Shown: piece after piece, positions 30,690 through 35,376 of the stretch
Layout: each line of letters begins with the position of its first letter
Numbering within the stretch: the first letter of the stretch is position 1
From: Escherichia coli
GTDB lineage: Bacteria > Pseudomonadota > Gammaproteobacteria > Enterobacterales > Enterobacteriaceae
Length of the DNA: 64,000 nt
Strand: one strand, 5' to 3'
NCBI GenBank assembly: GCA_029351405.1
Contig: GCA_029351405.1_4841.1
Notes under the pieces: model-generated
Databases searched by the model: none
The model's input: only the letters and a program-made list of their open reading frames with translations
Told to the model about the DNA's origin: nothing
Position numbers and translations under genes: made by a program

Positions 30690-31196
30690 TTATAGAGTAA
30701 CAAGTGATACGGTAAAAACCATCGTCCCGTCTGTTGCCATTTTTCTTGAAACTGGTATGACGCGAGGCTGGCAGAATATCCATTCTTTCTCCATGGACGC
30801 CAAGTCCAGCATATCCATTTCTGATTCATCGCCTTTGTTCACAAATTTTTCTAGAGAACCATAGACATTAAGCCCCTCCGGGAGTCCGTTTCGATGTTTG
30901 TAACAAATGCGGGCAACAGCTTTGGTTCCGTACGATTTAGAAAATTGTTTGGCCACATGCTTCAGTTCACTGAAGCTAAGACAAGAATCCCATGTCTGGA
31001 ACATGTCGCCTCGTTCAAACATCATCTCTAAACGCGCAACGTCCTCTTTAGGCAGCCCGCGATAAAGTGTGGTCGTCTGTGGTTCGCGTAATTCTTGCAC
31101 CAGATCACGGACGGCAGGGGAAACAGTACCGGGGCGCATTATGTGGGACTTATCATGGACGAGGTAAAATAAATCTTGAATTTGTTGATCGGTCAT
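30690..31196 (-). CDS. candidate mono-ADP-ribosyltransferase (R-S-ExE class; T4 Alt/Mod-like size)
   Basis: 168 aa. The ordered motifs TLYRGLP (Arg), CLSFSEL (S-x-S) and MEKEWIF (E-x-E) have spacing typical of the ART fold. ATG at 31196 in the exact cassette. Confidence 0.45.
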   Translation of the reverse strand: MTDQQIQDLFYLVHDKSHIMRPGTVSPAVRDLVQELREPQTTTLYRGLPKEDVARLEMMFERGDMFQTWDSCLSFSELKHVAKQFSKSYGTKAVARICYKHRNGLPEGLNVYGSLEKFVNKGDESEMDMLDLASMEKEWIFCQPRVIPVSRKMATDGTMVFTVSLVTL

Positions 31197-31222
31197 GGTA
31201 TAGTTCCTGCATTTCAAATAGA

Positions 31223-31545: not shown

Positions 31546-31574
31546 ATAATAGGACATTCCTTAGAGGAAGTAAA
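31546..31574 (-). promoter_or_regulatory. early promoter TTTACT-N17-TATTAT
   Basis: Minus strand reads ggggTTTACTtcctctaaggaatgtccTATTATtcaataac. Confidence 0.6.
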
Positions 31575-31585
31575 CCCCTAAAAGT

Positions 31586-31610
31586 AAAAATCCCCAACGT
31601 TTGTTGGGGA
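31586..31610 (-). terminator. rho-independent terminator after the ACP-like gene
   Basis: Minus strand reads TCCCCAACaaacGTTGGGGAttttta. Confidence 0.7.
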
Positions 31611-31616
31611 CTTCTG

Positions 31617-31940
31617 TTATTTGCGCAGGGCAACTACGAGTTCAGCGAGTTCACCCATGGTCGGGTCATCACCTTTACTGCCCAGCCAACCATCGTCGAT
31701 TTCGACCTGAAACTCTTCTTCGAGGTCCATTACAATTTCGATAGCGTCCAGTTCATCACCGCCGAGGTCTTTCTTGGTACGGAGGCCAGCCAGCTTGTCC
31801 AGGGCGTCCTCGTTCTGAGATGCCACGTCGTCCAGCAATTTGCGCTTGTCATCGTCACGCCACAGATCCAAGTTCAGATTGTCAGTGGCGTACTGAGCCA
31901 GATGACGCATGACTTCAACATATGTTGGTTTGCTGCTCAT
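31617..31940 (-). CDS. acyl carrier protein-like protein lacking the phosphopantetheine serine
   Basis: KKDLGGDELDAIEIVMDLEEEFQVEIDD aligns with E. coli ACP [27 protein letters not shown]. The DSL serine is replaced by Glu. There is an extra N-terminal extension of about 45 aa. Confidence 0.65.
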   Translation of the reverse strand: MSSKPTYVEVMRHLAQYATDNLNLDLWRDDDKRKLLDDVASQNEDALDKLAGLRTKKDLGGDELDAIEIVMDLEEEFQVEIDDGWLGSKGDDPTMGELAELVVALRK

Positions 31941-31982
31941 GCTACTTCTCCCAAAGAATGGCGGGTTGCCCCGCCCGTTGGA

Positions 31983-34184
31983 TTAGATTTTGATTTCTTT
32001 CTCTGTCAGTTCGGCAGTGACCTTGTACTTCACCCCATCCACTTCAACTTCCATGGTGGACTCTTCCAGGTCGAGGTCGGTGAACCAGCCATGACCAGCA
32101 ACGATACCATACACCACTTTAGACAGCGTCTTGTTCAGGGCGCGGACTTCGGTGATGGCCGCCTTGGTAGCAGCGTCGATCCAGTTTTCGATCAGCTGTT
32201 TCTGTAGGGCTTCAGGCACGGCAGTGATCATAGGAGACTTCACAAATGCTTCGTACTCTTTCAGAGCATTGGCGATGAACAAGTCACCAGCATTGAGTTT
32301 CTTGTTCTCGGCGATCTTCTTCTGTACTGCCGCGATGCTCGGTAGTGAAGATGCCCCGGCGATCTTAACGTTCAGCTCACGGCTCATGTAGACGTCCGTG
32401 GAGTCCTTCAGTTCGGTCTTCGGTGAGAAGCCGTAATCGCGGATGCCGTAGGAGGACAGGAACTCGGCCGCCTCAGCGCCGTACTGTACTGCCAGGCCTT
32501 TGGCGTTACCCTTACCAACCAGGGCGTCTCGATAGAACTTCAGTACCTTCTGCTTGCCTTTCAGGGCTTCCAGGCGGACATTATCCGCAAAGAACTGAGC
32601 AGCACTGATGTTCTTGACCATGGCGCGGTTGACCAGCGGTACGCTTTCCAGGTTCAGGATGAACACTTCCGGACCACCAAACACGTGGACGCCCATTTCG
32701 ATCAGCTTCTGTACAACTTCGATATCAGCCTTGAACGGCAGAGTCTTCACGTTAATGATACCGTCTTTGACGATGGTGTAGTTGCGCCACTGGAAAGTAT
32801 CCAGTTCTTCAGGCAGGCCAAACTTCTTCTGTGCGAATTCAGGCACAGCCACAGTACCGTGTTGAATTGTACGCACACTGATGTTCGGGCGCTCGGAGTT
32901 ATAGACCAAATCGCTGATTGGCACAACACCCAGGTCGTTGGTAGGTTCGAACGTCGGGTTCCACTCTTCGTGTTCTGCCAGCTTGAGAGCCAGGGCTTTA
33001 CGCTCTTCTTTGGACTGAGCATTCGCGATCTGTTCTGCCAGCTTGTCTTCGGTGTCGTCGGTTTTCTGCACAGTACCGCGCCCGATACTCTTATAGGAGA
33101 ACATCGGATGCTTGGTAGCAACAGGCACACCAGCTTCAGCCAGGTACGTCAGCACATCAACGACGGTTGTCGCATCTTCAGCCGGAACCATGTCATAGTC
33201 AATACCGTCAACGCCGCGCAGCTGGTCATCAACAATCGCCTGAACCAGATCGTTCTTGATGTTGGAGTAGTCCTGCTTGGTGAAGCAGTTGCTGTACTGT
33301 TTGATGAAGCGAACGTCGCCCGTCTTCTTCAGCGCAGCCCAAACCAGATCTGCGTCCATAGTGTGTACGCCGTAGAACGCCAGCACGTATGCCGCCTGGA
33401 TGTCCGTCAGGCTATCCATCTGGTCGATCATGTTAGGGTTTACAACCCACAGCTTGGTGACGCTCTCAGGGATGCTCACATAGCCGACCGGGTGAGAGTC
33501 ATCGTCCTGTACCGCCAGCACTGTTGCCACACCGTTTTCGACGTAGATTGCATGGGTGTAGATGACTGGGACATCAACTTTCACCTTCGGCACTGATGAC
33601 TTCAGCACGTTTTCCAGTTCGTTCTGGTATTCGGTCTGACCTTCGGCAAACACGTGAGTAGCACCGGAGCGTTCGGCCATCTGCGCCAGCAGTTCGCGGT
33701 TACAGTACCAGCCGTATTCGATAAATGTAATGTTATCGAAAGCAAATGGCAGGGTCTCAGCAACCAGTAAGATTTCGTTGGTACGCCAGCAGTTGTCATA
33801 ACCATCGGTCATGAATGCCAGGTTGTTGACGTAGCCAGGTTTCTTCAGGTCACGCGCAGTATCCATCGCCAGTTTCAATGGCTCAACGAAACCAGTACAG
33901 CCGGATGGTTGCAGGAAACGGTCGATCAGTTTGTTCAGCTCGCTCAGGTCAGATGCGACACCGATCTGACGCCCGGCAAATACCGTTCCGAAATCACCGC
34001 GAGATGAAAAGTAAAGGATGCTCACAGTATCTTCGGGTTTCACCAGGGAAGGTAGGTTCTCCTTCAGATGCTTACGGACTTCTGGAAGTGAACGATACAT
34101 GGAACCGGAGATATCCACAACGATTACATGGTTAGACGGCGCGACGGTCGCAACCGCATTCTTAAATGTTAATGATTCAATCAT
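31983..34184 (-). CDS. von Willebrand factor A (vWA) domain protein (733 aa)
   Basis: ATG at 34184 (MIESLTF). MIDAS motif VVVDISGSM, then ILYFSS and MTDG. The large C-terminal region is unassigned. Confidence 0.75.
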   Translation of the reverse strand: MIESLTFKNAVATVAPSNHVIVVDISGSMYRSLPEVRKHLKENLPSLVKPEDTVSILYFSSRGDFGTVFAGRQIGVASDLSELNKLIDRFLQPSGCTGFVEPLKLAMDTARDLKKPGYVNNLAFMTDGYDNCWRTNEILLVAETLPFAFDNITFIEYGWYCNRELLAQMAERSGATHVFAEGQTEYQNELENVLKSSVPKVKVDVPVIYTHAIYVENGVATVLAVQDDDSHPVGYVSIPESVTKLWVVNPNMIDQMDSLTDIQAAYVLAFYGVHTMDADLVWAALKKTGDVRFIKQYSNCFTKQDYSNIKNDLVQAIVDDQLRGVDGIDYDMVPAEDATTVVDVLTYLAEAGVPVATKHPMFSYKSIGRGTVQKTDDTEDKLAEQIANAQSKEERKALALKLAEHEEWNPTFEPTNDLGVVPISDLVYNSERPNISVRTIQHGTVAVPEFAQKKFGLPEELDTFQWRNYTIVKDGIINVKTLPFKADIEVVQKLIEMGVHVFGGPEVFILNLESVPLVNRAMVKNISAAQFFADNVRLEALKGKQKVLKFYRDALVGKGNAKGLAVQYGAEAAEFLSSYGIRDYGFSPKTELKDSTDVYMSRELNVKIAGASSLPSIAAVQKKIAENKKLNAGDLFIANALKEYEAFVKSPMITAVPEALQKQLIENWIDAATKAAITEVRALNKTLSKVVYGIVAGHGWFTDLDLEESTMEVEVDGVKYKVTAELTEKEIKI

Positions 34185-34353
34185 CGTTTTGACCTTTTTG
34201 GGCTTTGGAGTGTTTGGAGTTCGCGTCGGCGTTCTCCAGCATAGTTTCAATGAAATCCCGGTTGTTTTCCATTTGGGCGACCAGAACATCACTGGGGCGG
34301 AATGATTTGTCAAGACAATCAAGTCCGGCGCGTTTTAATTTGTTGTCGGTCAT
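34177..34353 (-). CDS. hypothetical small protein (58 aa)
   Basis: ATG at 34353. Its 3' end overlaps the vWA start by 8 nt. Confidence 0.4.
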   Translation of the reverse strand: MTDNKLKRAGLDCLDKSFRPSDVLVAQMENNRDFIETMLENADANSKHSKAQKGQNDD

Positions 34354-34398: not shown

Positions 34399-34429
34399 AT
34401 TATATTACGACAGGCGGTATTGATGTCAA
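34399..34429 (-). promoter_or_regulatory. sigma70-type promoter with a perfect -35 TTGACA
   Basis: Minus strand reads TTGACAtcaataccgcctgtcgTAATATaat, in a 123-bp AT-rich intergenic region. Confidence 0.5.
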
Positions 34430-34503
34430 TTAATATAATAAAAATACCCGATTGAATATAACCGGGCATTATATTATTGACAGGTTGAAATATTATTCAG
34501 AGC

Positions 34504-35376
34504 TTATTTAAAGGAGTCTACAATGGATTTGAAAATATAATCTTTGGAGCGCTGTTGTACCGGGAGTTCTCCATACGGAACCATGCAAGGGTGTTGTTTG
34601 GTCTGAGGGTCTTTGACTGGGCCATACACCCAACCCTCAGACTCCTTCTCCGCCATCCATCTCTCATGCGATTCGCTGGGCTTACGATCACCAGTGAGGT
34701 GGAAGATAACACCTTTGCAAGCGCTCTCACGTTGCCAGGCCGGAGATTGTTCCCAAGGCAGTTGAGAGTCGTCACCAACAGACTTACAGTATGCGCGGTT
34801 GGCTTCATGACAAATCTTGGCGATGCGCAGAACCAATGGCGAATAAGTGAGATCGAGTTTGGAGTTGGCGCGCAGGAAATCACTAACAGTCTTACGAGAT
34901 TTGGCGTTATGAGATTCAACAACAAGTTCCATGTCATCCGGCCCACAAACGAAAGACGCCAAGAAGCGCTCACCATTTTCCGCTCTGAACGTCACGTCCT
35001 GAATCATCACATTGAAGCCGAGGTGATAGGCCGGATAGAGGGCGCTACGTTCAACAGCGTATTGATCGATCCGGATCTCTGCCGTTTCCGTGGCTTTGGC
35101 CAACAGATCTTGTTCAACAAGCGCCCGGTACGTCTCGAGCTGCCACAGCTGGTCGAAGGTATTATTGTAGGAAATCTCTTTGCCCAGGGCTTCATCGAAG
35201 TTGGCAGGGTCTATGGATGTGCTGGGCTTGGTGCCGTGAACGACGAAGCCGTTATCCATCTTGAAATGACAAGTGATAGCCCGGTGACCGCCGACTTCGC
35301 GGTCTTCGTAAATCACCTCAGCGATATGTGACTTCAGGACTTCAGGAGTGAGTTTTATGCCAGTACGAGTTGTCAT
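34504..35376 (-). CDS. fusion protein: N4-gp49/Sf6-gp66-like N-domain + RyR (ryanodine-receptor repeat) C-domain
   Basis: N-part ITCHFKMDNGFVVHG...DPANFDEALGKEISYNN..WQLETY. C-part HERWMAEKESEGWVYGPVKDPQTKQHPCMVPYGELPVQQRSKDY matches the RyR pattern GWxYGxxxDxxxKxHPxxVPYxEL. Confidence 0.65.
   Translation of the reverse strand: MTTRTGIKLTPEVLKSHIAEVIYEDREVGGHRAITCHFKMDNGFVVHGTKPSTSIDPANFDEALGKEISYNNTFDQLWQLETYRALVEQDLLAKATETAEIRIDQYAVERSALYPAYHLGFNVMIQDVTFRAENGERFLASFVCGPDDMELVVESHNAKSRKTVSDFLRANSKLDLTYSPLVLRIAKICHEANRAYCKSVGDDSQLPWEQSPAWQRESACKGVIFHLTGDRKPSESHERWMAEKESEGWVYGPVKDPQTKQHPCMVPYGELPVQQRSKDYIFKSIVDSFK

Follow-up and report, generated by a model that had tools for sequence, protein, structure and literature searches.

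The DNA examined here, a stretch of 64,000 nucleotides (nt) from contig GCA_029351405.1_4841.1 of an assembly filed under Escherichia coli (hereafter the window), belongs to the genome of an Ackermannviridae phage (Aglimvirinae/Agtrevirus-like); over the roughly 4 kb around the gene that concerns us, its identity to Salmonella phage vB_CECAV_050 and Escherichia phages PC3 and PH4 is 94-96%. That gene encodes a 107-residue homologue of acyl carrier protein (ACP) in which glutamate occupies the site of the serine that accepts phosphopantetheine (Ppant), and it lies directly behind a gene for a virion protein with a vWA domain. The ACP-like protein matches phrog_4154 of the PHROGs database over its full length (E 6.8e-57), shares 99% identity with that of Escherichia phage LHE287, and includes the peptide KKDLGGDELDAIEIVMDLEEEFQVEIDD, which was quoted by the original prediction, a note made from the letters of the window alone. 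The gene and the elements of its product that matter below are placed as follows:

31617-31940 (-): ACP-like gene, 107 amino acids (aa), phrog_4154; ATG at 31940, stop at 31617-31619
31948-31952 (-): Shine-Dalgarno sequence GGGAG, 7 nt 5' of the ACP-like ATG, read from the sequence
31860-31940 (-): N-terminal extension, residues 1-27, with a helix at 7-21; family-specific
31692-31766 (-): ACP helix II, the 'recognition helix', and its flanks, residues 59-83 (LGGDELDAIEIVMDLEEEFQVEIDD), from the family alignment
31752-31754 (-): codon GAA for Glu63, the site of the phosphopantetheine-accepting serine, from alignment to ACPs
31656-31688 (-): lengthened helix III/loop, residues 85-95 (WLGSKGDDPTM), from the family alignment

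The gene occurs in 272 phage records from several genera, usually under the label "acyl carrier protein", and PHROGs files the family as an auxiliary metabolic gene. A literature search on the gene in Ackermannviridae found only annotation and tables of mass spectrometry (MS) results, and no paper was found that remarks on the missing serine or proposes a function for the phage gene; a search for papers on ACPs with a substituted serine likewise returned nothing. The family is one that is already catalogued, but mislabelled.

Fold and carrier-serine site of the ACP-like protein

The similarity of the phage protein to ACPs is well past chance, and the protein is a genuine ACP-fold homologue. 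In the profile search that the original prediction had proposed as a check, the PP-binding family of Pfam (PF00550) reached 24.8 bits (E 2.7e-5), which clears its curated gathering threshold of 20.8 bits, in a match limited to residues 58-101; the 27.4 bits of PF14573 fell under its cut-off of 32. A phmmer search against the PDB returned 99 chains at E<=1, the best of them at 1.6e-5, and among the matches listed 60 of 60 are ACPs or ACP subunits; the D-E-L of the phage protein aligns without a gap on the D-S-L of Bacillus subtilis ACP. Compared with residues 30-56 of E. coli AcpP, the protein is identical at 17 of 27 positions (counted from the sequences), and the four-helix carrier-protein fold is found, with ACP helix I at residues 30-40. 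The homology claimed at the outset is thus upheld, and one detail of it is corrected: the N-terminal extension, which had been put at about 45 aa, is about 27 aa long and holds one helix (residues 7-21), because ACP helix I begins at residue 30 and ordinary ACPs align to the family profile only from about position 24-30 on. Homology does not extend to orthology with AcpP, since all the AcpP equivalog models of NCBIfam score far under their cut-offs (TIGR00517, 33.7 bits against 70.45), with matches confined to residues ~54-83.

The family alignment has 29 invariant columns, which cluster on one face of the N-terminal helix (Y7, V10, L14, A18, N21 and L22), in the helix II region (L59, G60, G61, D62, L64, D65, I67, E68, E74, E76 and D83), and in the helix III loop (W85, G87, D91, D92, P93, T94, G96 and E97). 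Ten helix II positions equivalent to contact positions of AcpP (phage D62, D65, E68, M71, E74, E75, E76, F77, I81 and D83, corresponding to AcpP D35, D38, E41, M44, E47, E48, E49, F50, I54 and D56) are invariant or nearly so, and D35 and D38 of AcpP are experimentally needed for partner binding (PMC13343975). AcpP (PF00550; TIGR00517) and the phage protein are alike in their acidic helix II, in their contact residues, and in core charge and size (the net charge is about -14, with a pI of 4.2, in the phage protein, and -15 in ordinary AcpP). They differ in that the phage protein has Glu or Asp in place of the serine, an extra N-terminal helix, a lengthened Trp-containing helix III loop, and a shortened helix I, the region of which (residues ~25-45) is hypervariable. 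The N-terminal helix is absent both from ordinary ACPs and from the serine-less ACP-like proteins of other phages. In Salmonella phage Marshall (L019 601-927), residues ~26-45 are swapped for an unrelated segment, with flanks nearly identical to those of the window; this swap, in Marshall-type Kutterviruses, gives a protein of only 107 aa an internal cassette that is mosaic or hypervariable.

Replacement of the D-S-L serine by glutamate, read at first from a single copy, is confirmed in the codon (GAA, Glu63) and extends to the whole family. Across about 48 diverse members of the family, the most distant at 33% identity, the serine-equivalent column holds Glu or Asp and in no case Ser, which excludes the decayed allele that the original prediction had envisaged should orthologues keep the serine. 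The 27 cluster representatives (down to 57% identity) have Glu in 25 cases and Asp in two; the remote full-length members (P0040-P0047 and P0060, 33-49% identity), which come from a profile search of 1.8 billion proteins, have Glu or Asp throughout; and orf142 of phage CBA120 has Asp. In the orthologues the codon at this site is GAA, GAG, GAT or GAC in different lineages and never a serine codon, with repeated switches between Glu and Asp and none to any other residue. Since this switching never leaves the acidic residues, selection acts on the negative charge of the former attachment site as such.

No other serine is invariant in the family, so that there is no substitute attachment residue, and with the serine absent across the family neither 4'-phosphopantetheine nor acyl carriage is to be expected. 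Judged by these alignments, the ACP-like protein cannot be a carrier, and the auxiliary-metabolic reading of the 272 records would therefore be wrong. Pairwise dN/dS values of the gene range from 0.035 to 0.23; the gene is under strong purifying selection and functional. An ACP fold, clade-wide loss of the serine and purifying selection, the marks of an adaptor that is independent of Ppant, are thus found together in this family.

One divergent member has escaped annotation. Right after the vWA gene of Erwinia phage phiEa2809, an unannotated 99-aa open reading frame (ORF; L014 4810-5106, NC_027340 ~84802-85101) encodes a divergent ACP-like protein that reads M-D-E-L-D and has a pI of 4.05; it has a counterpart in phage Bue1, and the ORF is absent from the GenBank annotation of both phages.

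The transcription unit and the vWA gene

The ACP-like gene is the last in a unit that runs from a hairpin and a predicted promoter through a 58-aa ORF, the vWA gene, a 42-nt hairpin spacer and the ACP-like gene itself to a strong terminator:

34443-34470 (-): terminator-like hairpin ending the preceding RyR-domain gene
34402-34429 (-): sigma-70-like promoter TTGACA-16-TAATAT, 10/12, a prediction from consensus match only
34177-34353 (-): small ORF, 58 aa, phrog_11447, conserved upstream of the vWA gene
31983-34184 (-): vWA protein, 733 aa, phrog_2426; vWA domain and beta-sandwich in the first ~290 aa
31960-31975 (-): intercistronic hairpin GGCGGG-GCAA-CCCGCC, then AUUCUUU
31576-31615 (-): intrinsic terminator right after the ACP-like stop, 13-bp stem and U-run, conserved in relatives

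The stop of the 58-aa ORF overlaps the vWA start (ATGATTGA), and the vWA and ACP-like ORFs are in frame with each other. Two further points of the original prediction are correct: the ACP-like gene sits directly after the vWA gene behind a short hairpin spacer (42 nt, with a 6-bp GC stem, a GCAA loop and a short U-rich run), and it has its own terminator (-18.5 kcal/mol, z -4.05, followed by the U-run UUUUUACUUUU). The order small ORF, vWA, hairpin, ACP-like recurs in LIMEstone1, PH4, Det7, Marshall, CBA120 and Menlow and in five metagenomic contigs; in phiEa2809 the vWA gene, the hairpin and the ACP-like gene are kept, and the upstream ORF is larger (152 aa).

In 13 lineages (the window, L001, L004-L008, L014 and L017-L021), compensatory changes preserve the stem of the intercistronic hairpin, which takes the forms GGCGGG/CCCGCC, GGCCGGGG/CCCGGCC, GCCGGG/CCCGGC and GGGGGC/GCCCCC. 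Because the structure survives through such changes, the hairpin is under selection as an RNA element. Its probable role is that of a leaky terminator or an mRNA 3' stabiliser of the vWA gene, and it is equivalent to the terminator that follows the vWA gene in phages lacking the ACP-like gene (Matisse, pf16 and TSW001).

The vWA protein is 97% identical to that of Agtrevirus AV101. Its metal ion-dependent adhesion site (MIDAS) is complete (DxSxS...T...D), with D24, S26, S28, T97 and D127 unchanged across 48 sequences, some as distant as 33% identity. A conserved basic stretch (R37, H39 and K41) lies just after the MIDAS, and the protein is acidic overall (pI 5.1). With the vWA protein as query, a sequence search of the PDB gave no match, and the ~440 C-terminal residues had no structural match in the PDB. 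In LIMEstone1 the vWA protein is a virion protein (6 peptides, 11% coverage).

Conservation is much stronger in the vWA protein, which keeps 71-73% identity in contigs whose ACP-like protein is at 33-49%; the vWA protein is also more widely distributed, being common to Ackermannviridae, Slopekvirus-type Straboviridae and pf16, with remoter relatives in AR9 and Rhizobium phages. It occurs in 504 phage records, as against 272 for the ACP-like protein, many of them without an ACP-like gene, and contig L002 has an ACP-like protein with no vWA gene nearby. Slopekvirus (Matisse), Pseudomonas phage pf16 and Aeromonas phage TSW001 keep the vWA gene, the MIDAS and the terminator hairpin with no ACP-like gene nearby; no analogous small acidic gene follows the vWA gene in these three, where the genes are unrelated and one is basic. 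Because the vWA gene of such phages ends at the same kind of hairpin with a promoter directly after it, the ACP-like gene looks like an ancient insertion there, in a moron-like slot between the ancestral vWA terminator hairpin and the next terminator and promoter.

Several features around the unit are also conserved. A promoter-like sequence, GTTTACTTC...TATTAT/TATAAT, stands directly after the ACP-like terminator (31546-31574, minus strand), and this motif is conserved at the matching position in every lineage, including TSW001, where it follows the vWA gene; it is probably the early-promoter consensus of the family. At 30690-31217 (minus strand) lies a gene for a 175-aa protein that corresponds to positions 1265-1425 of the 1480 of phrog_832 and whose resemblance to the T4 Alt-type RNA polymerase ADP-ribosyltransferase family is confined to the catalytic C-terminal part. 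Relatives keep this gene (as Mod_ADP_RT in L006) at the same distance, two genes downstream of the ACP-like one, in a separate transcription unit. On the other side, at 34504-35376 (minus strand), the gene just upstream of the cassette encodes a conserved 290-aa protein with Phage_gp49_66 and RyR (ryanodine-receptor repeat) domains; some relatives have genes of nicotinamide salvage (Pribosyltran, NAPRTase) between the RyR gene and the cassette.

Possible roles of the ACP-like protein

The ACP fold, the intact helix II, the acidic replacement of the serine and the purifying selection fit a protein that keeps the docking function of ACP without carrying. We tentatively propose that it may be an obligate non-carrier ACP mimic aimed at host proteins, binding those clients of ACP that are independent of Ppant, and we infer that protein-protein binding through helix II is its only mode of action. 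On this proposal, helix II would dock on the basic patch by which a protein independent of the prosthetic group binds ACP, Glu or Asp would supply the negative charge given by the phosphodiester in holo-ACP, the N-terminal helix and the W..DDPT loop would raise affinity and specificity, and the target would be blocked or hijacked during infection. Among the further observations that count in its favour are the predicted sigma-70-type promoter that heads the unit, the moron-like slot that the gene occupies, the serine-less ACP-like proteins of unrelated phages with no vWA gene nearby, and the MS data for LIMEstone1 virions, in which the ACP-like protein was undetected.

ACP-fold proteins without Ppant are already known from apicomplexan mACP. 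The mACP of Plasmodium is an essential ACP that lacks Ppant and acts by protein binding; its replacement residue helps to form the interface, and in canonical partners an Arg contacts the Ppant phosphate (PMC8547962). By analogy, the Glu or Asp of the phage protein could stand in for the Ppant phosphate. The two have in common the clade-wide loss of the serine and their conservation (mACP being essential), and mACP binds via conserved acidic residues; they differ in the replacement, which is hydrophobic in mACP (Phe; Cys or Gly in Toxoplasma), with loss of the Arg in the LYR partner Isd11, and acidic in the phages. The setting here is moreover viral, and no LYR-type gene was seen near the phage gene. 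A second parallel is E. coli apo-ACP (PMC3896788), since the phage protein amounts to an ACP locked in the apo form, its recognition helix intact; in the E. coli case the inhibitor is the host protein at high dosage, whereas the phage protein has extra conserved elements. What is new is a viral ACP-fold family in which the acidic replacement is selected, a helix has been added at the N-terminus, and the gene keeps a fixed place behind a virion vWA gene.

The likeliest targets of such a mimic would be host proteins bound or inhibited by apo-ACP, among which PlsB, the neck of MukB, or AcpS can be named, although the identity of the target is speculative. Apo-ACP is the natural substrate of AcpS. 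It is also the stronger inhibitor of glycerol-3-phosphate acyltransferase (PlsB) and stops growth (PMC3896788), while MukB is bound and activated equally by apo- and holo-AcpP (PMC8602292). Three partners outside fatty acid synthesis had been suggested from the window as decoy targets, and of these MukB stands. SpoT and IscS are ruled out by their published dependence on holo-ACP or Ser36: SpoT does not bind apo-ACP (reviewed in PMC3896788), and IscS binding is lost in ACP S36T (PMC13343975). A phage inhibitor of MukBEF has been described in T7 gp5.9, which also hits RecBCD (PMC7617805).

Several observations weigh against a mimic aimed at the host. Host AcpP is present at about 50 uM (PMC8602292), and the ACP-like gene lies behind a conserved terminator-like hairpin, so that its expression may be low. 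Together these argue against bulk competition, and for the same reason a specific tight binder is favoured over bulk action of the decoy for many partners that was first proposed. The best matches of the protein are generic type II ACPs, with B. subtilis first, and thus give no sign of enterobacterial tuning. The N-terminal helix and the W..DDPT loop are as strongly conserved as helix II, which fits a dedicated partner, possibly a phage protein, as well as it fits a host one. In each Ackermannviridae lineage examined that bears the ACP-like gene, the vWA gene is its immediate neighbour without exception, and one ACP-like peptide was found by MS in a Sajous1 virion preparation, alongside one vWA peptide.

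A bolder form of the mimic proposal, which we consider distinctly doubtful, is that the charge-preserving, permanently 'apo' ACP mimic serves as a high-affinity host-takeover or anti-defence effector of Ackermannviridae and, independently, of other phages, with the MukB neck (or a Wadjet/Mks-type relative among structural maintenance of chromosomes proteins), PlsB or AcpS as the targets considered. If true, it would represent a new class of phage effector, made by disarming the host's most connected hub protein, and several hundred phage "acyl carrier protein" annotations would be functionally wrong. ACP is among the most connected bacterial proteins, and a non-modifiable viral copy with the docking helix retained would be a probe of ACP interactions in infection; it might also be a natural inhibitor, of lipid synthesis or of chromosome organisation. 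The Ackermannviridae include many candidates for therapy or biocontrol (against Salmonella, E. coli O157, Klebsiella and Dickeya), and a conserved host-directed effector would be of practical interest.

The main alternative, which we regard as unlikely, would make the ACP-like protein a dedicated partner of the co-transcribed virion vWA protein, acting as chaperone, plug or adaptor, with its Glu or Asp completing the metal coordination of the MIDAS. Integrin ligands and the ubiquitin-like (UBL) domains of Ytm1/Rsa4 give a Glu or Asp in this way to the MIDAS of integrin I-domains and midasin, and here too a vWA/MIDAS protein adjoins a small protein with an invariant carboxylate; the likeness is a lead only, and the vWA protein is widespread without an ACP-like partner. 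Gene order, with a hairpin spacer of ~40 nt, is kept in every lineage with the ACP-like gene, down to 33% identity and including Nezavisimistyvirus, but such synteny is weak evidence because Ackermannviridae genomes are collinear. The serine-equivalent site, at the N-terminus of helix II, holds only Glu or Asp, a carboxylate that is probably exposed, to judge from the position of Ser36 in ACP, and the N-terminal helix occurs only in ACP-like proteins that adjoin a vWA gene; nevertheless, ACP-like proteins with an acidic residue for the serine also exist where no vWA gene is nearby. Virion data point both ways, since the vWA protein is in the LIMEstone1 virion and Sajous1 yielded one peptide of each protein, but the ACP-like protein went undetected in LIMEstone1, and a vWA partner that is itself acidic (pI 5.1) is a further difficulty. 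Against the 272 ACP-like records stand 504 with the vWA protein, and because Matisse, pf16 and TSW001 keep the vWA protein and its MIDAS with neither an ACP-like protein nor an acidic stand-in, the ligand of the MIDAS is probably something common to all these phages.

Small acidic DNA mimics are common in phages, gp5.9 with its action on RecBCD and MukBEF being one of them (PMC7617805), and a charge of about -14 over 107 aa and a pI of 4.2 place the ACP-like protein among small acidic proteins. That it is a generic poly-acidic nucleic-acid mimic in the style of Ocr, Arn or gp5.9, blocking a DNA-binding host defence or enzyme, is nonetheless improbable, since its charge is not above that of ordinary AcpP (-15), its conservation sits on the helix II pattern of AcpP and on hydrophobic positions and not on a general acidic array, and the three cassette proteins gave no anti-defence or defence match in PADLOC and no anti-restriction PHROG match.

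It is very improbable that the protein is still a carrier, with Glu63 (or Asp) or another residue modified by a non-canonical enzyme such as the product of the Alt/Mod-like ADP-ribosyltransferase gene, even though that gene is conserved two genes downstream and the serine-equivalent site is strictly a carboxylate. The two genes are in different transcription units, with a strong terminator and a promoter between them, the T4 Alt and Mod enzymes are Arg-specific, the family has no invariant serine, and we know of no phosphopantetheinyl transferase that modifies Glu or Asp. Lastly, the view that the gene is a captured host or phage acpP that has lost its function and is decaying, which the loss of the canonical active residue and the hypervariable, mosaic residues ~25-45 might suggest, is effectively refuted by the selection data (dN/dS of 0.035-0.23, 29 invariant columns, and acidity kept through the Glu/Asp switches), as well as by an ORF that is intact in 272 phage records of several genera and a peptide detected by MS in Sajous1.

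ACP-like proteins outside the Ackermannviridae family

Other phage ACP homologues (phrog_5934 and its relatives) are likewise small ACP-fold proteins, some of which share the G...DDPT loop; their serine site is mixed, and all of them lack both the N-terminal helix of the Ackermannviridae family and a neighbouring vWA gene. One phage contig (L002) carries a D-E-L ACP-like protein of the phrog_5934 type near ThyX and HNH genes, with no vWA gene nearby. The D-S-L is kept in Xanthomonas phage phiXF1 and, together with DDPT, in P0062; the surroundings of the nearest serine-bearing relatives, P0062 and P0059, are mobile-element-like and chromosomal, and are uninformative. As serine-less ACP-like proteins occur without a vWA neighbour, loss of the serine does not depend on the vWA gene.

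Vibrio phage 277E43-1 encodes a 178-aa "hypothetical protein" (VP277E431_P0098; L022 2480-3013) that reads D-N-L-D, with Asn for Ser. Its N-terminal half is ACP-like and is fused to a C-terminal tail of ~95 aa, and no vWA gene is nearby; it is a third, independent serine-less phage ACP-like protein.

At the serine site, the profile matches hold 62 E, 18 D and 132 S, frequencies that are biased by the Glu-bearing query profile, so that they establish the existence of acidic-site proteins and are no guide to how common these are. Such acidic-site PP-binding proteins, which recur in other phages and in cellular metagenomic sequences, may form a wider, undescribed class of non-carrier ACP-fold adaptors. 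Outside the Ackermannviridae, D-E-L-D or D-D-L-D is seen in the PP-binding domains of many single- and multi-domain proteins (among them P0072, P0073, P0086, P0125 and P0135), tandem two-domain ones included, and another acidic-site PP-binding protein among the profile matches, P0126, is WP_165956069.1 of Streptomyces hainanensis.

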